Below are positions 6,387 to 62,227 of a DNA stretch of 64,000 bases, in pieces. A model generated the notes under the pieces. It worked only from the letters and a program-made list of their open reading frames with translations, was not told where the DNA came from and ran no database searches. The stretch's first letter is position 1. Every line of letters begins with the position of its first letter. The stretch covers positions 138,984-202,983 of the forward strand of contig JAEUKH010000018.1 in assembly GCA_016792845.1 (NCBI GenBank), given 5' to 3'. Made by a program: the position numbers and the translations under genes. This DNA comes from Myxococcales bacterium (lineage in GTDB: Bacteria; Myxococcota_A; Polyangia; Polyangiales; Ga0077539).

Positions 6387-7271
6387 GTGAGCTTCTCAAC
6401 GCCCCTCATTTCGGTCGAAGCGTTGTCTACCCTGGCCGCCTCACCGCGGCTCCGGTTGATCGACCTCCGGTGGCATCTCAACGGCCCGAGCGGCGCCGAT
6501 TTGTACGCCCGCGGCCACCTCGACGGGGCCGTCTTTGTCGACCTCGAAGCCGCCCTCACGGCCCCCGTGGGCCCCGGGCGACACCCCATCGCCAGCCGCG
6601 CCCAGTTTGAGCGGGCCATGCGCGCGGCGGGCGTCTCGAACGACACGACGGTGGTGGTCTACGACGACGCCGGCGGCAGCGTCGCGTCTCGGCTCTGGTG
6701 GCTCTTGCGATACTACGGGCACACCGAGGTCGCGGTGCTCGACGGCGGCCTCGCCCGCTACGAGGCCCTCGGCGGCGCGCTCAGCACCCGCGCCACGGCG
6801 CCCGAGCCCGGCAGCTTCGTGGCGAAGCCCGGGGCCATGCCCGTGGTCTCGGCCCTCACCGTCGAGGCTCGGGCCGCCGAGCCCGAGGGGGCGCTCCTCC
6901 TCGACGCCCGCGCGCCCGAGCGGTACCGCGGCGAGGTCGAACCCGTCGACGCCCGGGCGGGGCACATCCCCTCGGCCCGCAACGCCTTCTGGCAGTGGCA
7001 CCTCGACGGCGCGGTGTTTCGCAGCCGAGAGGCCCTCGCGGCCCACTTCGCCGCCCTCGGGGTCACCCCCTCGCGCGAGGTGATCGCCTACTGCGGCAGC
7101 GGCGTCACCGCCTCACAGCTCATCTTGGCCCTCACCTACGCAATGCCCTCCCTCACCGTCTCGCTCTACGAAGGCAGCTGGAGCGACTGGTGCCGCGACC
7201 CCTCGCGCCCCATCGCCACCGGCGAGGCCCCGGGGCAGCTCTGGCCATCAAGCCCATCGCCCCGCTGTTGA
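6387..7271 (+). CDS. Tandem-rhodanese sulfurtransferase (thiosulfate/3-mercaptopyruvate type)
   Basis: Two rhodanese modules. Active-site loop CGSGVTAS near the C-terminus. Confidence 0.75.
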   Translation: MSFSTPLISVEALSTLAASPRLRLIDLRWHLNGPSGADLYARGHLDGAVFVDLEAALTAPVGPGRHPIASRAQFERAMRAAGVSNDTTVVVYDDAGGSVASRLWWLLRYYGHTEVAVLDGGLARYEALGGALSTRATAPEPGSFVAKPGAMPVVSALTVEARAAEPEGALLLDARAPERYRGEVEPVDARAGHIPSARNAFWQWHLDGAVFRSREALAAHFAALGVTPSREVIAYCGSGVTASQLILALTYAMPSLTVSLYEGSWSDWCRDPSRPIATGEAPGQLWPSSPSPRC

Positions 7272-7555
7272 ACGGTGTTCAACACGCCCCTCGCATCGCC
7301 TTGTTGAACAGTGTTCAACACGCCCCCCATCGGCGCCACAACCACACTCGCAGCGCTTCGTTGAGCGGCGCTCAACACGATCACCGCGGAGAGGCGGCAC
7401 GCTGTTGAACAGCGCTCAACAGCGAGGCCCGATGACGCTTCGGCGCCCGCGGAGTGTGCGGCGGTCGCGCGACCGGCGGCCCTCACGGGTCGGGGGTCAC
7501 ACGCAGACGCTGTAGCGATTCTCTGGGGCGAGGAGGCTGTTGAACAGTGTTCAAC
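7267..7555. repeat. Array of five 17-bp palindromes GTTGAAC-N3-GTTCAAC in a convergent intergenic region
   Basis: Copies at about 7267, 7303, 7360 (GTTGAGCGGCGCTCAAC), 7404 and 7539. Spacing is irregular (34-126 bp). Confidence 0.85.
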
Positions 7556-8838: not shown

Positions 8839-10773
8839 TTGATGGTGACCGTCGCCGCCCGCCGCTCGCGCTTGCTCCTCGTTGGTGCCCTGCTCTTGGG
8901 GGCGTGTGAGACGCAGCCCACCCACGAGGTGTTGTCACTCACCGACCTCACGCCCCGGGCCCTTGAGGTCGGCGAGCGGGTGGTGCTCACCGGCGCGGGG
9001 CTGCCGCAAGCGCAAGACATCCACCGCATTCGGCTGCGCTTCAGCGGCACCGTCGCGCGCCCCGGCGCGGCCAGCTGCGGTCGCCCGGTGGTGCTCAACG
9101 TGGTCGACCCGCCCGACGAGGCGCAGCTCACCGACCACCTCACCGGGCAGAGCCGCGCGGCGACCTATGCCGAGAGCGCGCTCCACACGGTGCGCGTCGA
9201 CGGGCCCAATCGGCTTGAATTCGTGCTCACCGCGGCGATGCTCGACACCCTCTCGCGGTGCCCCGAGGCGAGCGAGGCGCAGAGCGACGCCCCCACCCAC
9301 GCGACGCTGAGCCTCAGCGGGGCGCGGGGCGGCGTGAGCCTCCAGATCGAGACCGCCCAGGGCACCGTGCTCTCGGCCGCCAGGGCGCTCCGCGGACCCA
9401 CCGTCGAGCTCATCCCCCATCGGGCCGCGCTGGCCGAGGAGCTCGCCGCGCGCACCACCGCCGAGCGCGCCCTCGACACCTTGGGCCTCCAGCTCGCAGC
9501 GGCGCACCCCACCGAAGGGGGGCTCCAGATCGAGCGCGTCAGACCCGGCTCTGCGGCCGACGAAGCGGGCCTCTCAGACGGCGACGTGATGGTGCGCCTC
9601 GATGGCGTGACCCTCCTCGGAGTCGGCGATTTTCTCCCCGCTCCGTCGCGCGAAGTCTCGGTGCTCACGGTGCGCCGCGGAGACGCCCTCGACGACCGCG
9701 CGATGCGGGTCTCGAGCCTCGCCCCGACGGCACCCGCCGACCTCGTCGCGACGGGCGTCTTGCTCCTCGTGGCGATGGCCTGGCTCCTCGTGGCCCGCGG
9801 CGGCGGCCCGGGCTCGGTGCGCTGGATCGTGCGTCGCCTCGGCAGCCCCGAGCGCGACCCCAGCACCCATCACAGCGCCCTCGACGACGCGCGCCGCGGC
9901 TGGCGTTGGAGCTGGCTCGTCGGCGACCTCCGGCGTCAGCTCTTGGGCCTCGCGGTGTTCGGCAGCACGCTGCTCTGCACGGTGCTCGGGCCCTTGTTCT
10001 TGGGGCGCGACCTCGACCTCGCGGCGGCCCACGGTTTTGTCGCTTTGGGCTCGCTGAGCCTCTCGGCCTTCTTGCTTCGTCAGCGGGGTCTCGCCCTCCA
10101 TCACACGGCCCGCGCACTCATCGACCGGCTCCCGAACGAGCTCCTGGCCCTGCTCCCGGTGGCGGTGGGCGTGATGGCCGCGGGCTCGCTGCACGTGCAA
10201 GACCTCGTCGACGCCCAGGGCGGCGCCCCGTGGCGCTTTACGGGCCTCGGCGCCCCCTGGACGGCCCTCCTCGTCGTCGGCTGGTGGGCCTCTCTGGTGC
10301 GTTCGACGGAGCCCGGCGTGGCCCTCGACCTCCGGGCCTGGGCGGGCACCGTCTCGATGCTCTGGGTGCGCGCGATGCTCGGCGTGGTGGTGTTTCTCGG
10401 CGCTTGGCGGCTCCCCGGCGTCGGGGCGATGACCCAAGACGCCCGCGCCTCGCTCAGCATGCTCGGGGCCCTGTGGCTGTCGCTCAAAGCCTGGGCCCTG
10501 GTGCTCTCGGCGCTCGCCGCCCGACGCGCCTTCGCCCGGGTGAGCGCCCCGCGCTTCAGCCGCTTCGTGCTCCGCGCGTGGCTGCCCATGTCGCTCGTCG
10601 CCGCGGCCCTCAGCGCCGCCCAGGTGCTCAGCACCCCCCGCCTCGGGAGCGTCACCCGCGACGTGCTCACCCGCTCGGCGAGTTGGGCCACCGTGGCCAC
10701 CCTGGCGATGGCCCTCGGGTGGATCACCTGGCGCCGCCTGCGCCCCCGCGCCACCTTCGGCTACGCCCCCTGA
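8839..10773 (+). CDS. PDZ domain-containing polytopic membrane protein
   Basis: N-terminal lipoprotein-like signal and a PDZ-like segment (GLQIERVRPGSAADEAGLSDGDVMVRLDGV), then at least 8 predicted TM helices. Confidence 0.5.
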   Translation: MMVTVAARRSRLLLVGALLLGACETQPTHEVLSLTDLTPRALEVGERVVLTGAGLPQAQDIHRIRLRFSGTVARPGAASCGRPVVLNVVDPPDEAQLTDHLTGQSRAATYAESALHTVRVDGPNRLEFVLTAAMLDTLSRCPEASEAQSDAPTHATLSLSGARGGVSLQIETAQGTVLSAARALRGPTVELIPHRAALAEELAARTTAERALDTLGLQLAAAHPTEGGLQIERVRPGSAADEAGLSDGDVMVRLDGVTLLGVGDFLPAPSREVSVLTVRRGDALDDRAMRVSSLAPTAPADLVATGVLLLVAMAWLLVARGGGPGSVRWIVRRLGSPERDPSTHHSALDDARRGWRWSWLVGDLRRQLLGLAVFGSTLLCTVLGPLFLGRDLDLAAAHGFVALGSLSLSAFLLRQRGLALHHTARALIDRLPNELLALLPVAVGVMAAGSLHVQDLVDAQGGAPWRFTGLGAPWTALLVVGWWASLVRSTEPGVALDLRAWAGTVSMLWVRAMLGVVVFLGAWRLPGVGAMTQDARASLSMLGALWLSLKAWALVLSALAARRAFARVSAPRFSRFVLRAWLPMSLVAAALSAAQVLSTPRLGSVTRDVLTRSASWATVATLAMALGWITWRRLRPRATFGYAP

Positions 10774-11003
10774 GTTGAACACTGTTCAACACGCGCCTGG
10801 CCGCGTCTTCGCGTCACCCTCGTCGCCCAGATGCGCGCCGTTCGAGGCGGCCTCGGCGCCGCAAGTTGAACACTGTTCAACACGCCCGCGCGCCGCGCTG
10901 ACGCCCCGCCGACGGCATCGCCGGACGCCTGCCCAGGCGCCGCACCGCGCCCCGAGGCCCGAACGATGAACGCTGTTCGGCGCCGTGTTGAACAGTGATC
11001 AAC
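10774..11003. repeat. Array of three or four GTTGAAC-N3-GTTCAAC palindromes in a convergent intergenic region
   Basis: Copies at about 10774, 10865 and 10987 (GTTGAACAGTGATCAAC), plus a degenerate copy near 10965 (GATGAACGCTGTTCGG). Confidence 0.85.
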
Positions 11004-34441: not shown

Positions 34442-35809
34442 ATGGAAGTTGAATGCGTTTCTTGTTCAACGCGCGCGCCGCAGGGCACGAAGCGTTGCCC
34501 CAAGTGCTTGAGGACTCGACTCTTGCCAGTGCCCGAAGCCCCCGCTCGGGGGGGCGAAAAGGGGCTCGCTCGACCCCTGCGCCTTGGGGTGCTCTTTGTG
34601 AGCCTCGGGCTCGGCGCGGGCGGGGCCGTCTGGCTCTCAAAATACAGAAAATCAAGCGACAATCGGGGTGTCGTCGCAGCCCCTGTGAGCGCGGCGCAGC
34701 TCGGCCTTGGAGATTCGTTGAGCCCCGAAGCGGCCGCTCTCACGCGGGCGGCCTCGACACCATCGGCGCGGCTCCGGGTGCTGGGCGAGCGGCTTCAGGC
34801 GCGACGGCGCGCGCGGTGGGTGTCTGGGGGTGATGGGGTGCCTCCGCCCCGCAGCCCGGCTCAGGTGTGGGAGGCCTTGGCGCGCCCCGAGACCGCGGTG
34901 ACGGAGCTCGAAGTGGCGCGTCTCGCGGCGGCGCTCTTGCGCGGGTGCGGCGACAGCGCCGAGGTCGCGCTCCGCGAGCGCCCGCGGCGACGTGAACACA
35001 GCCGTAGCGACGTGGCGGCCCTCGGCAGCTGGCTGGTGCGTTCGGGCGACCAGCTCCTCGACCTCGGGAGCATGATGGTGCTCGGCGCCAGCGCGGTGCC
35101 GCACACGGTGTTGAACAGTGTTCAACTCGCGGCGGCGCTCGACGCGGCAGCGGCGATCGAGGTCTCGACGGCGGCCGAGGGTCGGGCCGCGGCTTTAGGC
35201 CGGGCCGAGTCGGCGGTGAACGGTTGGCGCGACGGCTGGCTCCCGCTGGCTGCGCGGGCCACGGTTTGGGTCAACGTGGGGGCGAGCAGCGGGCTCGACC
35301 ACGCCGCCCGCGACCTCTCGGCGGCGATCGCGCTTTCAGACGACGCGGGCCTCCACCTCGCACGGGCGCGGGTGCTCCTGGGGCAGCGTCGCCTCGTCGA
35401 GGTCGCCTTCGAGACGCAGCGCGCGTTGCAGATGGCGCCGGGCTTCACCGAGGCCGCGATGGCGTCGATGCTCTTACATCGGGTCTACGCTCAGCTCGAC
35501 GGCGGCGCGCCTTCGGGGTGTGAGGCGCTCCATCTCGCGCACCAGCCCACGGCCGACCTCGCCTCGGTGCTCTGCGCCGAGGGCCAGTCTGAGGCCTCCC
35601 GGGCGCAGGCCGCGACGCAGCTCGTGGCGCGCTCGACAGACCCGTTGGTGTTGGCCTACGCGGGGCGGGCGCTCGGCCCTTCGGCGGCCCCGACGCTGCG
35701 GCAAAAGACGACCCTCGCGGCCGCGCGGCGAGAGCTCGTGGGCTGGCTCGAAGCGGCCGGTGAGAGCGCGCTGTTGGCGGCCCTGGTGCCCCAAGACGGT
35801 GGCCTGTGA
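34442..35809 (+). CDS. Zinc-ribbon plus TM hypothetical protein
   Basis: N-terminal C-x2-C-x10-C-x2-C, one TM, and a large helical domain. An in-frame palindrome at 35109 encodes LNSVQ. Confidence 0.45.
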   Translation: MEVECVSCSTRAPQGTKRCPKCLRTRLLPVPEAPARGGEKGLARPLRLGVLFVSLGLGAGGAVWLSKYRKSSDNRGVVAAPVSAAQLGLGDSLSPEAAALTRAASTPSARLRVLGERLQARRRARWVSGGDGVPPPRSPAQVWEALARPETAVTELEVARLAAALLRGCGDSAEVALRERPRRREHSRSDVAALGSWLVRSGDQLLDLGSMMVLGASAVPHTVLNSVQLAAALDAAAAIEVSTAAEGRAAALGRAESAVNGWRDGWLPLAARATVWVNVGASSGLDHAARDLSAAIALSDDAGLHLARARVLLGQRRLVEVAFETQRALQMAPGFTEAAMASMLLHRVYAQLDGGAPSGCEALHLAHQPTADLASVLCAEGQSEASRAQAATQLVARSTDPLVLAYAGRALGPSAAPTLRQKTTLAAARRELVGWLEAAGESALLAALVPQDGGL

Positions 35810-36210: not shown

Positions 36211-37380
36211 TCAGGGCTCGCGCTGCACGAACAGCGACCACACCAGCGCGTCTTGGGTGTCTGTGGTGAAGACCGTGGGGCCCTCGCTCGGGCAGAGCCT
36301 GAGCCCGGCGACGTTCTCGTGCATGGGCACCTCGGTCTCGCCCCCAGAGGCCCGATCGTAGCGGGCCAGGCGCGCCCTGAGACCGACCGCGTGACGCACA
36401 AACCCCAAGCGCACGCAGCCGCGCCCGAGCTGCCGCGGGTCGACCACCGCGAGCACCCGCGAGAACGCGCGGTCGCCCGTCTGCACCACCGCGTCGTGCA
36501 CCGGCGGGAGCGTCTGCCCTCGCGACGCCTGCTGCTCGACGATCGAGAACTCCAACGGGAGGCCCGTCGTAAACCACGCGCCCGGCACCACCTCGGGCTC
36601 GACTCGCGGGTGAACCGGCTCGTCGTCGCGCTGTTGAACACTGTTCAACAGGGCGCGGTAAGTGACCGCGGTCGAAGGCACGAGCCGCGCAGCCCCGGGC
36701 CGGAGAGGCAGCGCGAGCCCCCCCACCGAGGGCCCCTCAAGGCTCGCCGCGCGGTCGAGCGCAGCCCCTTCGCCGAGGCCCACAAGCCCCTCGGGCGAGA
36801 AGGTGCCGCGGTTGAGCGCCGCAACACCGCCGACCTCGGCGCTCGGACCGCGGAGCACCGTCACGATCGCCGTGCCGCCGCGCACCGGCGGGGGCAGCAT
36901 CGGCGAGAGGTTGCGGGTCTCGAGCACCATCACGAGCTCGGCCGGCGCGTGGGTGCACCACTGGAGCTGCCCCGTGACGCCCATGGGTTCGCGGGCCACC
37001 ACCAAGGCAGGAGGCATCACGCTCACACGCTCGGCGCCCTCGGCGCGGTGTTGCAGCCCGAGGCGCTCGATGCGGTGATACCCGTGAACCGAGACCACCA
37101 CGGCCGCGCAGGTCTCGGCCCCGAGGCTCAGGGTGTACGACGCGTGACCCCGCGCGCCCGCGTCGGCTTCGAGCACCGGGAGCGTCACCTCGACGGGCTC
37201 GCGCATCCCCAAAGCCCGGGCCACCGCCACCTCGGTGTTGTGGACCCGCCGCGCGAGCGCCTCGGCCACCGGCGGCGCGTTTTCGGGAGGGTGCCGCGCC
37301 CGCGTCGCCGTCGCGTACATCAGCGCCACGATGGCCGAAAAGAACGCGCTGAGCACCCACAACACCGCCCGCAGAGACAT
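36211..37380 (-). CDS. Membrane-anchored hypothetical protein
   Basis: N-terminal TM. An in-frame palindrome at 36633 encodes LLNSVQQ. Confidence 0.4.
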   Translation of the reverse strand: MSLRAVLWVLSAFFSAIVALMYATATRARHPPENAPPVAEALARRVHNTEVAVARALGMREPVEVTLPVLEADAGARGHASYTLSLGAETCAAVVVSVHGYHRIERLGLQHRAEGAERVSVMPPALVVAREPMGVTGQLQWCTHAPAELVMVLETRNLSPMLPPPVRGGTAIVTVLRGPSAEVGGVAALNRGTFSPEGLVGLGEGAALDRAASLEGPSVGGLALPLRPGAARLVPSTAVTYRALLNSVQQRDDEPVHPRVEPEVVPGAWFTTGLPLEFSIVEQQASRGQTLPPVHDAVVQTGDRAFSRVLAVVDPRQLGRGCVRLGFVRHAVGLRARLARYDRASGGETEVPMHENVAGLRLCPSEGPTVFTTDTQDALVWSLFVQREP

Positions 37381-37522: not shown

Positions 37523-38758
37523 ATGCGAGCGCGCGCTACGGCTTTGATGACTCTCTCGACGGCCCTCTGGGTCGCCTCGTCGCCCGCAGCGGCTCAGCTC
37601 ACGGGCGGGCGTATCGGCGGCTCCAACTGGGGCGCCGCGCGGCCCTCGCGCACCGTCCAGGCGAGGCCCTCGGTGATGCCGTCGTTCGGTGCGCCGACGC
37701 CGAGGCCGGCCCCCGCCCCCGCGCCGACGGTGCAGCTGCCGGGGCTCCCGGCGGTGGCTCCGAACCCCGCCGCGATGCCGGGGATCGCCGTCGTCACGCC
37801 GCGGGTCGAGGTGCCAGCGGCGCCGCTCCCTCGCCTCGCGGTGAGCGCGTATGTCGCCCCGCCTCCGCACCCGGGGTATGTGCTCTACGCTCCCGGGGGT
37901 CGCACCCTTGAGCCCGACGAGGCGCAAGCGACGCACCCCCTCTGGCCGATGCACGACACCTACGGCCCGCTGAACCTCCTGGGCGGCGCGGTGGTCTTTG
38001 TGGGTCTCTTCGGCGCGCTCGGGGTCGGCGCCTGGGTGCTCACCCGGGCTCAGGGCGCAGCGCCGTCGCCCTCGCCGCCGTCCATTCCCCACGCTCCTGC
38101 GGGGCTCCCGGTGTCGCTCGGCCGGGTCTCGCTCGCGTTCGACGCCTCGCTCCGCGCGCACCTCCAGGCTGAGCTCGCGCGCTTCGCCGCGCAGGCGTCG
38201 TCGTCGTCACCTGAGGCCCTCGAGCGCACGACGCGGCAGGCCATCGACCTCCTCGGCAGCGCCCTCGGGGCGGCGCGGGCCGCCGCGGTGGCGAGCGCGC
38301 AGAGCCGCGTCGACGAGGCCGAGCGGCGCTTCACCGGGCTCGCCGATTCGCTGCGGCAGCGGTACACCGTCGAGAGCATCACCGAGGCCCGACGGGTGGT
38401 GATGCCGGGCCTCTCGCCCCTCGCCGACGAGGGTCAAGGCTTCGTGGTGGTGTCGCTCCTCGTCGCTGTTGAAACCCCGGATCTTGAAGCCCCCGCAGAG
38501 TTGAACACTGTTCAACTTGGGGCGTGGTTGCGCGCGCTGCGACCGCGGGCCGGGGGGCTCCTCGCGACGGAGCTCATCTGGTCACCGGCCGACCCTGGCG
38601 ATCTCATGTCATCGGCCGAGATGCTGCACCTCTACCCCGAGCTTCGCCCGCTCGAAGGGGCGACGCTCGGGCGCGTGGTGTGCGGGCACTGCCGGGCGGT
38701 GTTCGCCGCCGAGTTGGGGCGCTGTCAGCGTTGCGGCGCGGCGCCCGCCCAAGCCTGA
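37523..38758 (+). CDS. DUF1517-like exported protein with a C-terminal zinc ribbon
   Basis: Signal peptide then GGRIGGSNWG. C-terminal C-x2-C-x12-C-x2-C. An in-frame palindrome at 38500 encodes ELNTVQL. Confidence 0.4.
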   Translation: MRARATALMTLSTALWVASSPAAAQLTGGRIGGSNWGAARPSRTVQARPSVMPSFGAPTPRPAPAPAPTVQLPGLPAVAPNPAAMPGIAVVTPRVEVPAAPLPRLAVSAYVAPPPHPGYVLYAPGGRTLEPDEAQATHPLWPMHDTYGPLNLLGGAVVFVGLFGALGVGAWVLTRAQGAAPSPSPPSIPHAPAGLPVSLGRVSLAFDASLRAHLQAELARFAAQASSSSPEALERTTRQAIDLLGSALGAARAAAVASAQSRVDEAERRFTGLADSLRQRYTVESITEARRVVMPGLSPLADEGQGFVVVSLLVAVETPDLEAPAELNTVQLGAWLRALRPRAGGLLATELIWSPADPGDLMSSAEMLHLYPELRPLEGATLGRVVCGHCRAVFAAELGRCQRCGAAPAQA

Positions 38759-45998: not shown

Positions 45999-47831
45999 AT
46001 GAAGCGTCGGTCAATTGCCGCCACCGTGCGGACAGGATCAGTGTACGCTGTTGCGCTCGCGACAGCTCTCGGGGCCCGTTCGGGTCTCGCCCAACCCATC
46101 ACCCCGACGGCGACGCAGACGAGCCCTGCGACCCCCGCGCAGACGGGCACCGACCCGGGCACGACCTCGGGCGCCACGACGCCCGCGGGCGGCTCGAACA
46201 GCGCCCAGGGCTTCGCGCCTCCGAACCTCGGGCAGACGGCCCCGCAAGACCCCGGCCCGCAGCCGCAGGCGGGCGCTCCGGCGGTTCAGCCTGTGCGTAT
46301 GGAGGCCCCGGTGGCCCGCACGGCGCCGGCGACGTCGGCCCGCCCGTCGACGCCCCACGATTTCATCGACACCCGCATCACCTGGACGTTCGGTGACGAC
46401 GACATCTTGACCTCGACGGGTCAGCGGGTGCCCGTCTCGCCGCTCCCGCGGATCGCCGACCGACAGCAGTACCAGCTCTTCTTCGACGCGCTGAACTCGC
46501 GCTTCGCGGGCCGTGAGAACCTCACGCACCTCGCGATGTACGCGCGGGCTCCGGGCTTCATCGACCGGCTGACCACCGAGGCGGGCTTGATCCTCCGTGT
46601 CGACCTCGGCCAGTTGACCACGGGCTCGGGCAACTTGAACCAGGCCTTCTACGACGCGGGCACGTTCTTGCGTGTGGCCTACGGGCTGAACCCTTCGCGG
46701 GCCTCGGACCAGGTGTCGCTGACCTTCTTCCCCTTCGACACTGACCGCTTTCGGCTCGGGTATCTTTGGGATCTCTCATGGGGCGGCAACGACGTCTTCC
46801 CGCGCCGCGTGGGCCCCGCCCCGGGCCTGAAGCTTCAGCTCGACATCGGCGGGCTGCAGCTCTGGACGGGCTTCAAGACCGCCGGCATCGTGGTGCCCCT
46901 TGAGGTGGTCACGCAGTCGCGCGACATCGAGATCGTGCGCGTCGAAGAGACCCAGTATGCGGCCCTCGCGGGCGGCGCGTACCGCTTCAACGAGAACGTC
47001 AGGTTTGACGTCTCGGGCGGGTACTTTCAGCAGGGTCGCTTCGACTTCCCCGGGGTGCGCGGGCAACAGGTCTACCTCGTCGGCGGCAGCGCGCGGCTGG
47101 TGTTCTCGCAGGGCCTCAGCGCGGGCCAGTCGCTCGACATGCGGCTCTACCGCAACGACCCGACGACGCCCTTCCAGGCCTTCACCCCCGAGACCTACAC
47201 CCCCGGCCGCGTCTTGTGGAACGTGTCTCTCGAAGGCACCGCCATCGGTCAGAACCTGGCCGACATCAACTTCCCCGGGCGTACGGCGATCCAGACGGGC
47301 TTCGCGGGGGCGCTCCAAGCCCGCCTCAAGGCTGGCTACTTCGGCGCGGGCTTCACGGCCCTCTACCGCGACGTGCCCTTCCTCCTCCGCAACGTGCCGA
47401 GCTTCATCCCCTTCCAGACCTTGCCCACCGACGCGACGGTCGACCCTGAGTTCTTCCTCGCCGCGCAGGTCGACTACGCCTTCGTGCGTCAGCATCTCAT
47501 CCCGAGCTTGATCGTGGGCATGCAGCTCCCGGCCTCGTTCTCGAGCTCGGTGCGCGAGGGCTCCCTCGAATCCGAGCGCACGCTCGTGATTCGCCGCGCG
47601 GGCAACTTCTCGATCCTCCCGCCGGGCGAGGGCCGCGTACCGATCATCTCGGCCCGCGCCTCGATGCGCTGGGATCTCTCGACCGTCCTCGCGGGCATCT
47701 TCTGGGTGCAGTACGTGCTCGACCAGAACGCCACGCTCCTCCAGGTCGACTCGTCGGGTACGCGCCAGGTGCGTATCTTCCAAGCGGCCAATCAGCTCGG
47801 CTTCGGCATCACCGCGCAAGCCCGCTTCTGA
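45999..47831 (+). CDS. Outer-membrane beta-barrel protein
   Basis: Signal peptide, alternating amphipathic strands, and a C-terminal ...GFGITAQARF with terminal Phe. Confidence 0.5.
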   Translation: MKRRSIAATVRTGSVYAVALATALGARSGLAQPITPTATQTSPATPAQTGTDPGTTSGATTPAGGSNSAQGFAPPNLGQTAPQDPGPQPQAGAPAVQPVRMEAPVARTAPATSARPSTPHDFIDTRITWTFGDDDILTSTGQRVPVSPLPRIADRQQYQLFFDALNSRFAGRENLTHLAMYARAPGFIDRLTTEAGLILRVDLGQLTTGSGNLNQAFYDAGTFLRVAYGLNPSRASDQVSLTFFPFDTDRFRLGYLWDLSWGGNDVFPRRVGPAPGLKLQLDIGGLQLWTGFKTAGIVVPLEVVTQSRDIEIVRVEETQYAALAGGAYRFNENVRFDVSGGYFQQGRFDFPGVRGQQVYLVGGSARLVFSQGLSAGQSLDMRLYRNDPTTPFQAFTPETYTPGRVLWNVSLEGTAIGQNLADINFPGRTAIQTGFAGALQARLKAGYFGAGFTALYRDVPFLLRNVPSFIPFQTLPTDATVDPEFFLAAQVDYAFVRQHLIPSLIVGMQLPASFSSSVREGSLESERTLVIRRAGNFSILPPGEGRVPIISARASMRWDLSTVLAGIFWVQYVLDQNATLLQVDSSGTRQVRIFQAANQLGFGITAQARF

Positions 47832-48399
47832 GCGGCAGTTCAGCCAAACCCAGCGCCGCGTCTTCGAGCACCTCTGCCGCGTCGCCGACGCCCTCCATCG
47901 AGAGCGCCGCGACGCCGTGGCAGTGCGCCCAGAGCGCCATCGCGCGCCCCCGCACCTGCCCCGTCGAGGCCAGCCCATCAACCGCCGCGAGCGCCACCAC
48001 GAAGCGCTCGAACGCGTCGTGGGCCCGGTTCGGCGCACGCCCCGCGGGCGCGAACATCACCGCGTAGAGACCCCGATGGAGCCGCGCGAAGCCCACGTAC
48101 GCCGCGCACACCGCGACGAGCTGGGCGCGGGCCGCGACGGCCTCGGCGCGGGCGCCATCGAGCCGCTCGACGAGGCGCGCGAAGCCCTCCTCTCGCACCG
48201 CCCCGAGGAGCCCCTCACGGTCAATGAAGTGGTGGTACGCCGCGGCCGGAGCGACCCCCGCCTCGCGGCACACCGCGCGCAGCGACAGCGCCGCCGAGGG
48301 GCCCGATTCGAGCATCGCCAGGGCCGTGCCCATGAGGGTCGCGCGGAGGTCGCCGTGGTGTTGCCCCACCCTCCGCGGGGGGCGCTTTCGCTTCGCCAT
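47809..48399 (-). CDS. TetR/AcrR-family transcriptional regulator
   Basis: N-terminal HTH LRAVCREAGVAPAAAYHHF. 196 aa. Confidence 0.8.
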   Translation of the reverse strand: MAKRKRPPRRVGQHHGDLRATLMGTALAMLESGPSAALSLRAVCREAGVAPAAAYHHFIDREGLLGAVREEGFARLVERLDGARAEAVAARAQLVAVCAAYVGFARLHRGLYAVMFAPAGRAPNRAHDAFERFVVALAAVDGLASTGQVRGRAMALWAHCHGVAALSMEGVGDAAEVLEDAALGLAELPLRSGLAR

Positions 48400-48445
48400 G
48401 TCTGGTGGTCGCAGCCTAGCCCGGCCCGCGCCCGCCGTGAACCGT

Positions 48446-48606
48446 GTTGAACAGCGTTCAACAGCGCCGAGGGCATCGAAGGGGCCGACCCGCGCTCAGC
48501 CCGGCCGAGGGTTGTCTGTCATGTTGAACAGCGTTCAACGGTGAACCCTGCGCGTGTTGAACAGTGTTCAACTTCGCCCCTGTGTGCGTGTTGAGCGGTG
48601 TTCAAC
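48446..48606. repeat. Array of four GTTGAAC-N3-GTTCAAC palindromes directly upstream of the TetR gene
   Basis: Copies at about 48446, 48523, 48556 and 48590 (GTTGAGCGGTGTTCAAC). Flanking GTGAACC motifs at about 48438 and 48541. Confidence 0.85.
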
Positions 48607-48898
48607 TGGGGCCTGGCCCGCGCTCCTGGCCCTGCGGGGGCGGCGGCATCCGGTCGGGCCTGCAGATCATGCGCTGGTCGCGGAAGGCCGCGCAGGTGCC
48701 CGAGATCGTGTGGGGGCCGAAGTTGACCGTGCAGGCGTCGCCGGTGTTGTGCCCCTGGCAGGCCGTAAACGCCTCGGCAGGGGGCTCAGGCGGTCGCCCG
48801 CCGGGGTTGCCCGGTTGGCCCTGCGGTTGGGCCGCGGCGAGGCCCGAGAGCGACAAGACGAGACCCAGTGAGCAGAGCGCGCGGCGCAGCGATTTCAT
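48602..48898 (-). CDS. Small secreted Cys-containing protein
   Basis: Signal peptide. 98 aa with 4 Cys. Pro/Gly-rich. Confidence 0.4.
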   Translation of the reverse strand: MKSLRRALCSLGLVLSLSGLAAAQPQGQPGNPGGRPPEPPAEAFTACQGHNTGDACTVNFGPHTISGTCAAFRDQRMICRPDRMPPPPQGQERGPGPS

Positions 48899-49423: not shown

Positions 49424-50731
49424 GTGAGTCTTCCGCTGGTTGTTGCGATCCAGAAGGCGCTCGGCGAGGCGCCCGGCCACCCTGCCCTCGTCGACGATGC
49501 GCTGCGGGCGGTGTTCAGCTTCCAGCTCCACGCGCCGCAGCTGACCGACGACCCGCGCGCGCGGGCCGCGCCGCACGCGGTGCTCCACGAGATGCTCACC
49601 CACCTCGCCGCGGGCCCGTGGCACGCGCGCTTTGTCGCCCTTGAGTTGAACAGTGTTCAACACGAGGCCCTGGTCATCGCGGGCTTCGCCGCCGCGTCGC
49701 TGCCCGAGGTCGAGTGGCTCATCAAGCAGAACTGGCGGGTCACCGAGGGGCTCCTCGCGGCCCGCGACGACGCCCCCGAAGCGCTGCTGGCGCTGGCCGA
49801 GCGGCTGCGCGGCAAGCCCGCCGAGAACCCCGCACTCTTGACGGCGCTGGGTCGCCTCGCGGTGATCGCCGACGGCCTCGAAGACGCGCTCACGTTGGCG
49901 AATTGTAGCCTCGCCGCGACGGCCGAGCGCGCCTTCACGGCCCTCGGCCCGACCCGCACCGCGCGGGTGGTCGAGCGGGTGCTCGCGCGCTTCGACCACA
50001 CGCCCGAGTTTCGCAGCCAGAGCCTCATCCCGATGCTCGAACGGGTCGGGCCCTGGCTCAACGCCCGCGCCCTCGACGCCGTGCTGACCCGGGCCGAGCT
50101 CCTCTCGAACACCTACCTCGCATGGGAAGATTGGGGCCAACGCCTCGGCCAGAACGCCGACACGCGCTTCGTCCTCGGGGCCGTCGCGGCCCGCATCGCC
50201 CAGCACGACGACCCGGGGCTCCGCGACGGGTGGCGCCGGGCCGCGCGCATGTTGCTCGACCGCGCGACGCACCGCGGGTTTGTGCCCTCGCCCGACGACG
50301 ACGTGTTCATCGACCCCGCGGGCGCGGCGCGCGGCAACGACGACGTGTGGATGGCCACCCGGAGGCTCCTCAACGCCATCGGCCCGACCCGCGCCGAGGC
50401 CGTGCTGACGGCAGCCTTCGCGGGCTACCGCGCCCCCTGCGAGGCCCTCCGCTTCGCCGTGAGCGGCATGTCGCCGGGCTACCTCTCTCGGGTCGCCGAG
50501 GCCATGGTGGCCGTGCGCGACGACCCTGCCTTCTCAGACCTCCTGGCCATCAGCGACCTCAAGCCCTTCGGCCCCGGGTTCGTCGACGCGCTCATCGAGG
50601 CCCTGCGCGACCTCCGTCCGCGCCGCGCCTTTGTGAAGCACCTTGAGCGCAACCTCAGCGTCGGCGACTACAACCGCCTCTCGATCTGGCTTGAGACGCG
50701 CCCGCCGCCCAAACGCCCCCGCGCGCCGTGA
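49424..50731 (+). CDS. Hypothetical helical-repeat protein
   Basis: 435-aa ORF with ordinary composition. An in-frame palindrome at 49644 encodes ELNSVQH. Confidence 0.4.
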   Translation: MSLPLVVAIQKALGEAPGHPALVDDALRAVFSFQLHAPQLTDDPRARAAPHAVLHEMLTHLAAGPWHARFVALELNSVQHEALVIAGFAAASLPEVEWLIKQNWRVTEGLLAARDDAPEALLALAERLRGKPAENPALLTALGRLAVIADGLEDALTLANCSLAATAERAFTALGPTRTARVVERVLARFDHTPEFRSQSLIPMLERVGPWLNARALDAVLTRAELLSNTYLAWEDWGQRLGQNADTRFVLGAVAARIAQHDDPGLRDGWRRAARMLLDRATHRGFVPSPDDDVFIDPAGAARGNDDVWMATRRLLNAIGPTRAEAVLTAAFAGYRAPCEALRFAVSGMSPGYLSRVAEAMVAVRDDPAFSDLLAISDLKPFGPGFVDALIEALRDLRPRRAFVKHLERNLSVGDYNRLSIWLETRPPPKRPRAP

Positions 50732-50794
50732 GCGCCCTGTTGAACAGTGTTCAACAGTGGGTGAAATTCGGGGGCGCAGCGGGTGCGGCGCGGG

Positions 50795-61906: not shown

Positions 61907-62155
61907 CGGTCCCTTGATTGCTGTGCTCCTTGGATGGGGAGCCGCCCTGGCCCCCACAGTGTGTTGAACCGCTCTGGCACCGACACCAGGCCACAAAACG
62001 GCTCCGACGCGGAGAGTGAACGCCCAGAGGCACTCTCGTCAAGCGCAGCGCCCCGAAGAAGTGCAGCGCCCCATCGCCCGCGCGACGTTTTGAGAGACGA
62101 CCCCCCCAAAGCCGACACCCGCGAGACTCTTTCGAATCATCGCGGGTGTCTTTTG

Positions 62156-62227
62156 TAGGCGCGATAGGGTTTGAACCTACGACCCCCACCGTGTCAAGGT
62201 GGTGCTCTACCACTGAGCTACGCGCCT
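62156..62227 (-). tRNA. tRNA-Val (anticodon GAC)
   Basis: Manual cloverleaf fold: acceptor AGGCGCG/CGCGCCT, D-arm GCTC/GAGC, anticodon stem CCACC/GGTGG with loop TTGACAC, T-arm GTAGG-TTCAAAC-CCTAT. No encoded CCA. Confidence 0.8.

Follow-up and report, generated by a model that had tools for sequence, protein, structure and literature searches.

Introduction

TetR-family repressors of the kind acting at tetO-type operators (tetO itself, TCCCTATCAGTGATAGAGA, and the sites of QacR and AcrR) combine a TetR_N helix-turn-helix (HTH) with a ligand domain, their specific binding to DNA is relieved by a small-molecule ligand, and autoregulated members of the family are served by a site lying just upstream of their own gene. 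SlmA, a nucleoid occlusion factor of Escherichia coli and an antagonist of FtsZ, and RefZ of Bacillus subtilis belong to the same family, and their palindromic targets, the SlmA-binding sites (SBS, 12-bp GTGAGTACTCAC) and the RefZ-binding motifs (RBM), are scattered along the chromosome, some of them inside genes, with SBS missing from the terminus; both occur in tens per genome as single sites and not as arrays at gene ends. Repetitive extragenic palindromic (REP) sequences are bacterial repeats usually of unknown affinity or bound by general nucleoid proteins, and the REP-associated tyrosine transposase (RAYT), a Y1 transposase whose gene is flanked by the repeats it serves, is typically single-copy per genome. 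Here, we address a 64-kb stretch of DNA (hereafter the window; GC content 70.8%) from contig JAEUKH010000018.1 of an uncultured Polyangiales bacterium (assembly GCA_016792845.1), in which a short palindrome recurs at several loci and forms an array of four copies in front of a gene encoding a 196-aa TetR-family regulator. Comparison with related genomes strongly supports recognition of the palindrome by this protein, the four copies being its predicted autoregulatory operator region. As for the whole set of copies, an autoregulated TetR with an operator array, accompanied by a lineage-specific REP-like amplification of that operator, appears to be the best overall account and one to which we assign a reasonable, if not high, probability.

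Results

A single TetR gene, that of the regulator, was found in the window. Its product matches TetR_N (PF00440, residues 25–68 of 196, 36.9 bits against a cut-off of 24, E = 3.1e-09) and TetR_C_33 (PF13305, an all-helical C-terminal ligand/dimerisation domain, 48.4 bits against a cut-off of 26.8, E = 1.6e-12), while the nearest solved structure, 3on2 (E = 2.8e-20, residues 12–179), is that of an uncharacterised Rhodococcus regulator. Exact look-up of the 196-aa product returned no record because gene callers began at Met23, and the protein search recovered one entry with 100% identity, which comes from this organism itself. The block VGQHHGDLRA, N-terminal to the alternative methionine and kept in orthologues, supports the start at 48399. 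Taken with the repeat statistics given below, the domain matches confirm as real the arrangement read from the letters alone, i.e., a TetR gene preceded by four palindromes within 160 bp.

In a search of 5.8 billion proteins, the hits following the protein itself showed 47%, 45%, 41%, 43%, and 41% identity, and, where the DNA of these relatives was obtainable for inspection, the five closest were each preceded, shortly before the start codon, by this palindrome or a close variant of it. The best of them (P0002, 47%) is encoded on a 4,578-bp contig (L043) found independently by the scan for the exact 17-mer described below; the centre of the exact 17-mer there lies 44 bp ahead of the start codon, and the spacer is shared with a divergent gene of the metallo-beta-lactamase fold. 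P0003 (L083) has GTTAAACAGTGTTCAAC 44 bp upstream, P0004 (L082, 62% GC) has two sites with one or two mismatches each in the equivalent spacer, and P0005 (L084) has a related dyad, TCTGAACATCGTTCAGA; in a Myxococcota metagenome-assembled genome (MAG; L019, TetR of 43% identity), the arrangement is syntenic and the 17-mer is exact within diverged flanks. The orthologues thus possess one or two copies of the palindrome in the spacer shared with the divergent metallo-beta-lactamase-fold hydrolase gene, with the site centre 44–45 bp upstream of the ATG versus 55 bp for copy 1 in the window.

The exact 17-mer was scanned over 185,579 species-representative genomes (596 Gb, both strands), which gave 72 stretches versus approximately 70 expected by chance according to our own arithmetic; since the hits are at chance level, a lone 17-mer in an unrelated genome carries no meaning. 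A hidden Markov model (HMM) was built from the TetR hits and run on all open reading frames (ORFs) within 1.2 kb of each exact 17-mer at the 192 genome and metagenome loci listed. Among these listed matches, a TetR-family gene starts 0–115 bp downstream of the motif in 15 of 192, and the 15 loci represent three distinct TetR clades, including a Paenibacillus and a group of soil-metagenome contigs. The recognition helix is nearly the same as in orthologues, reading GVAPAAAYHHF in the window protein and GVAPAAPYHHF in P0004. Genomic comparison thus gives good support to the regulator as the cognate binder of the palindrome, as the sequence-only reading had proposed, and also to its further proposal that the local array could act as an autoregulatory operator.

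Likeness to tetO-type systems comprises the same TetR_N HTH plus ligand-domain fold, the 19-bp dyad with a single central base pair, and the placement of the site just upstream of its own gene or, in orthologues, in a divergent spacer with an enzyme gene. The window differs in having four tandem operators and no divergent partner gene, and in that about 14 further copies of its operator are spread over promoter-free places of the 64 kb.

The unit repeated at the TetR gene is T-GTTGAAC-AGT-GTTCAAC-A, its four copies being enclosed between the TetR ATG and the stop codon of a 98-aa ORF (Table 1). The census of the whole window gives about 18 copies, including four degenerate ones, at 8 loci, or approximately one copy per 3.5 kb. 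Strand-matches at no more than two mismatches number 30 versus 0.00 expected from 100 shuffles, and the heptamers GTTGAAC and GTTCAAC present in the window are nearly all parts of the palindrome. The motif reads TGTTGAACAGTGTTCAACA. As a small correction, alignment of 17 copies shows a conserved unit of 19 bp: T precedes the core (−1) in 14 of the 17, and A follows it (+1) in 10 (A/T at this position of the flank matrix). Beyond the consensus, T-GTTGAAC-A(G/C)T-GTTCAAC-A, there are weak symmetric gcg/cgc flanks, and neither a GTAG or CGTC tag nor a longer shared body was found in the aligned copies. Decayed members of arrays bear A/T-to-G/C changes, for example GTTGAGCGGCGCTCAAC and GATGAACGCTGTTCGGC. 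A miniature inverted-repeat transposable element was rejected, as conservation ends at approximately 19–23 bp. Resemblance to the LexA site, the Cheo box (GAAC-N4-GTTC), and parS (TGTTNCACGTGNAACA) was rejected on spacing and sequence, the window motif being GAAC-N3-GTTC.

The array at the TetR gene ends, as had been noted from the letters, at the stop of a small gene with a signal-peptide-like N-terminus, which copy 4 overlaps. Independent assemblies likewise contain a gene call for this 98-aa ORF, which has no Pfam match. On the other side, a convergent 610-aa gene (45999–47831) and the TetR gene overlap by 23 bp at their 3′ ends (47809–47831), so that there is neither spacer nor palindrome there. 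Scanning the DNA upstream of TetR for sigma-70 promoters gave nothing, which is uninformative for a myxobacterium. The impression that this array is the densest one does not hold, as the segment 7267–7420 is equally dense, packing four copies (two degenerate) into 154 bp.

Table 1. Positions of the TetR gene, its upstream neighbour, and the copies of the palindrome in the window.
Feature	Position	Strand	Context or evidence
TetR-family regulator gene, 196 aa (TetR_N HTH + TetR_C_33)	47809–48399	minus	Pfam match; orthologues at 41–47% identity
Operator copy 1, GTTGAACAGCGTTCAAC, centre AGC	48446–48462	.	centre 55 bp upstream of TetR ATG
Operator copy 2, GTTGAACAGCGTTCAAC, centre AGC (AGT in other strains)	48523–48539	.	
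Operator copy 3, perfect GTTGAACAGTGTTCAAC	48556–48572	.	
Operator copy 4, GTTGAGCGGTGTTCAAC, one arm mismatch GTTGAGC	48590–48606	.	TCA at 48602–48604 is the TGA stop of the 98-aa ORF
98-aa Cys-containing ORF, signal-peptide-like N-terminus, upstream of TetR on the same strand	48602–48898	minus	gene call in Logan assemblies
Array, 5 copies (7267, 7303, 7360 degenerate, 7404 degenerate, 7539)	7267–7555	.	305-bp spacer, convergent stops of rhodanese gene and manC
Array, 3–4 copies (10774, 10865, 10965 decayed, 10987)	10774–11003	.	245-bp spacer, convergent stops of membrane-protein gene and rhomboid gene
Intragenic copy, in frame VLNSVQL	35110–35126	.	inside ORF 34442–35809
Intragenic copy, in frame LLNSVQQ	36633–36649	.	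inside ORF 36211–37380 (minus)
Intragenic copy, in frame ELNTVQL	38500–38516	.	inside DUF1517 gene 37523–38758
Intragenic copy, in frame ELNSVQH	49645–49661	.	inside 435-aa gene 49424–50731
Single copy	50739–50755	.	63-bp spacer, convergent stops of 435-aa gene and dnaK

The genetic environment of these elements, as seen from a Pfam scan of ORFs, is composed of chromosomal housekeeping genes including recA, dnaK-grpE, moaCE, carD, ybeY, and manC (host ManC, MBL8601500.1). The window begins with the C-terminal portion of a ParA/MinD-like ATPase (AAA_31, CbiA; 57–548).

Fourteen of the 18 copies are intergenic although non-coding DNA makes up 13% of the window (p = 7e-10); counted by locus, four of eight are intergenic (p = 0.013). 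The two spacers bearing arrays of convergent type (305 and 245 bp) are the only long ones of this orientation, the others with both ends mapped being shorter than 70 bp or overlapping. The centre base, which is the only asymmetric position, has uniform orientation within arrays (5/5 and 4/4), and adjacent units share flanks, which points to local duplication as the mode of array growth. The repeat supplies the stop codon (TGA in GT-TGA-AC) of the rhodanese gene on the plus strand (7269–7271) and of the 98-aa ORF on the minus strand (48602–48604), and the stop of a third gene (10771–10773) directly abuts a copy; thus, the repeats have shaped gene 3′ ends. Apart from the upstream region of TetR itself, approximately ten divergent promoter-bearing spacers of the window contain no copy even at three mismatches, and for this reason the idea that the dispersed copies constitute a genome-wide regulon is not supported. 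The Pfam scan of window ORFs brought up no transposase, RAYT included, and no other mobile-element gene, the window being less than 1% of the genome. In their convergent 3′ spacer arrays, decayed members, and absence from relatives, the dispersed copies resemble REP-type repeats more than occlusion sites. Features common with REP sequences and bacterial interspersed mosaic elements (BIMEs) are the short high-copy palindrome, its clustering in spacers that follow gene ends, the decay of some members, the occasional unit inside a gene, and an abundance particular to the species (PMC3733652).

The location of most copies just after stop codons also brings into consideration their action as RNA or single-strand hairpins, either terminators or stabilisers of mRNA 3′ ends at convergent gene ends. 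Folding of the 23-nt unit gives −12 kcal/mol (z = −3.6), and neighbouring copies are able to pair. For a genome of 71% GC, however, the core hairpin is a weak one (−6.8 kcal/mol, with z = −0.56 in the native context at 10774), the loop is conserved as well as the stem, a U-tract is missing, and the terminator scan picks up no copy. Rfam gives no match at the arrays, and the association of the motif with TetR promoters elsewhere would be left unaccounted for, all of which makes a hairpin function very improbable. Intrinsic terminators in particular were rejected (hairpins of −6.8 to −12 kcal/mol, no T-run, negative terminator scan), and so was a known RNA at the arrays, as the Rfam scan of the window revealed tRNA-Val only (GAC, 62155–62227).

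Copies residing inside genes behave in a different manner from what an inserted repeat predicts. All four of them (35110, 36633, 38500, and 49645) are perfect and share one codon phase, which reads LN(S/T)VQ, and one of the two remaining phases is closed by the TGA of the palindrome. Six sequences of the 435-aa family, namely, the window protein and five homologues, align without indels at copy 49645, with ELNSVQH opposed to DDTGSGH or DLWQMGH, and a 45%-identical homologue of the DUF1517 protein spans copy 38500 gap-free. Since the length of the stretch is conserved in homologues, copies 38500 and 49645 represent replacement of codons and not added DNA, which calls either for selection favouring the site or for a templated mode of replacement.

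This length-neutral replacement is the main support for another explanation, according to which the TetR protein would have in the dispersed copies a chromosome-wide binding array under selection, recent in origin, nucleoid-associated, of occlusion or roadblock type, and related to SlmA, RefZ, and Noc in logic and not in ancestry. A dedicated TetR would then have been recruited as a chromosome-wide DNA-binding protein with its operator at hundreds or thousands of positions, created partly by selection rewriting codons (LN(S/T)VQ), and would play a structural, roadblock, or occlusion role as an independent recent invention of SlmA/Noc type. Besides the four perfect intragenic copies, the two homologue-tested ones of which are very unlikely to be replacements without selection or a templated process, it is favored by the match of the copies to the conserved operator including the central A·T positions, which a hairpin stem does not need, and by their occurrence both within and between genes, as for SBS and Noc-binding sites. 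We nevertheless regard such recruitment as rather unlikely. The window protein is not an orthologue of SlmA (19 bits versus a cut-off of 120 for NCBIfam NF007015), and its homologue P0004 reaches 23 bits versus a cut-off of 180 for RefZ. Arrays of four or five sites, some of them decayed, within 3′ spacers are unlike occlusion or segregation sites, the part of the window from 11 to 35 kb is free of copies, and neither the sampled DNA of the nearest relatives nor the distribution of single nucleotide polymorphisms (SNPs) among strains shows what would be expected of maintained sites.

The relatives in question have ManC proteins of 74–76% identity to that of the host. In 54 kb around manC of the three sampled, one Polyangiales MAG and two metagenome contigs, there is no copy of the palindrome and no synteny, and dispersed palindromes of their own were not found in these close relatives. 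Likewise, no high-GC genome with more than one exact 17-mer is present among the 185,579 species representatives, a collection evidently without the species of the window itself. Amplification of the operator therefore appears, on the genomes compared, to be lineage-specific. Eight independent same-species assemblies from other samples are 99.7–100% identical to the window and contain no indels; SNPs among them are not depleted in palindrome sites (3 of 272 positions versus 88 of 31,110 elsewhere, the numbers being small). Samples in which the organism occurs include SRR29844862–76, SRR12425352/64, SRR10555725, and ERR15459719. Five independent Logan assemblies (L073–L077) all break at one position in dnaK (about 51388 of the window), presumably because conserved dnaK sequence collapses in metagenome assembly. 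A recurring 12-mer on a Polyangiales-like metagenome contig (L209, 62–217) was ruled out as a dispersed palindrome, being part of a 48-bp tandem repeat (…CACCCGTCAGACAGGGGCAC…) with four copies near the contig end. The scan of viral contigs for the motif gave seven single hits, apparently at chance level.

Outside myxobacteria, the identical 17-mer is encountered in cyanobacteria as the stem-loop of a multi-copy GTAG-tagged REP, GTAGGG-GTTGAACAGTGTTCAAC-CC. Its hosts are Geminocystis, Cyanothece, Crocosphaera, Snowella, Nostoc, and Microcystaceae MAGs (loci L001, L004, L005, L009–L011, L014–L016, L028, L030–L034, L038, L042, L053–L058, L061, L063–L066, and L068–L072, with L109, L122, L130, L134, L173, and L189 in metagenomes). 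GTAG-tagged REPs have been described in Cyanothece and Anabaena, and classified REPs in general bear an unpaired GTAG or CGTC tag (PMC3733652). The HMM applied to ORFs within 1.2 kb revealed no TetR gene beside the cyanobacterial copies, and since the GTAG tag and the GG/CC extensions are absent from window copies, the cyanobacterial element should be considered a separate family. It demonstrates that this very sequence can be amplified as a REP; its identity to the operator of a myxobacterial TetR is an unexplained coincidence. The sequence-only reading had regarded abundance of the motif in genomes lacking the regulator as speaking against its proposal. Formally such abundance does exist, in a structurally different element, and the evidence from adjacency of the motif to TetR genes stands.

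With this element in mind, one might suppose that the window copies are likewise a plain selfish repeat of REP type, its transposase encoded elsewhere, and that the TetR gene has nothing to do with it, one cluster having landed nearby. The REP-like distribution and the amplification of the same 17-mer in cyanobacteria speak for it. Such a lack of relation is improbable considering that both orthologous and unrelated TetR genes in unamplified genomes bear the exact site in their own promoter region. A cluster would fall next to the sole TetR gene detected here with a chance of about 4 in 55 spacers, and this TetR is orthologous to the regulators using the operator; the window copies also lack the GTAG/CGTC tag.

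Some further occurrences of the motif are of another nature. Many short metagenome contigs of 60–67% GC carry a composite element, GTGTTCAACGAC-GTTGAACAGTGTTCAAC-CACGGCGCTGTTCAC, with at least three half-sites (L091, L096, L103, L120, L127, L139, L141, L162, L170, L176, L179, L182, and L194); a search of the 1.2 kb around it gave no TetR gene, and a different regulator may bind it. A 3.2-kb metagenome contig of 43% GC (L093, 847–1872) contains 14 copies with 0–2 mismatches irregularly spaced over about 1 kb, which looks like a satellite or coding tandem repeat unrelated to the window organism. In a Sandaracinaceae MAG (L027, 7568–7584), one exact copy is situated immediately upstream of a flavin-monooxygenase-like gene with no regulator within the 8 kb fetched; this gene may be another regulon member of a similar TetR.

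Discussion

The account preferred here may be formulated as follows. The 196-aa protein would be a TetR-family repressor of ordinary appearance, belonging to the TetR_C_33 subgroup, and its conserved operator the predicted 19-bp dyad, which like tetO has 9-bp arms and one central base pair. Judging from comparative genomics, its dimer most likely sits on each of the four copies between the 98-aa gene and its own start, thereby presumably repressing its own promoter and blocking read-through from upstream. In one uncultured Polyangiales lineage, this operator would have been amplified along the chromosome like a short palindromic repeat of REP type, with such REP-like traits as filling of convergent-end spacers, local duplication, decay of copies, and supply of stop codons, whereas inside genes the copies would be tolerated only in the frame reading LN(S/T)VQ. 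Since TetR is expected on all intact copies, the dispersed ones are predicted at least to titrate it.

Several observations weigh against this scheme. The recognition helix of the window TetR differs from those of the orthologues by one or two residues, and the gene is devoid of the divergent metallo-beta-lactamase-fold partner typical of them, so that it could be a paralogue of drifted specificity. As a repeat, the palindrome deviates from classified REPs in lacking the unpaired GTAG/CGTC tag, in being a perfect dyad with only T/A flanks conserved, in its AT-rich composition within a 71% GC genome, in its association with a specific transcription factor as the predicted operator, and in the absence of a RAYT gene from the window. 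The length-neutral intragenic copies are not explained by it, as an insertional or REP-type repeat predicts otherwise. Finally, the data from this genome are confined to 64 kb, less than 1% of its length.

The scenario of SlmA-like type suggested from the letters does not stand as family membership, and only a possible functional analogy may be retained. Together with RefZ, SlmA shares with the window system a TetR-family protein and scattered palindromic sites, some of them intragenic; apart from the bit scores given above, the difference is in the motif, TGTTGAACAGTGTTCAACA being unlike SBS, and the evidence from the window has no bearing on FtsZ. Multiplication of protein-binding sites by a dispersed repeat is also known for the IHF sites of BIME and repetitive IHF-binding palindromic elements in E. 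coli and for Correia elements in Neisseria. There, a general nucleoid protein is the binder and the site is part of a longer element, while in the window the whole unit is the predicted operator of a dedicated TetR regulator. Literature searches with the motif and its sub-strings found nothing relevant, and no report of TetR bound to a REP family was found.

At the least, these results predict an operator for a TetR_C_33 subgroup that is widespread and uncharacterised. Amplification of binding sites by repeats is a major theme of eukaryotic genome evolution, barely documented in bacteria. In the window, the repeat unit appears identical to the operator of an identifiable TetR encoded beside one of the arrays, and unamplified relatives are available for comparison. 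The lineage may therefore offer a testable system for how a short operator spreads, what effect thousands of decoys would have on a repressor, and whether such spread may seed a nucleoid-binding function.

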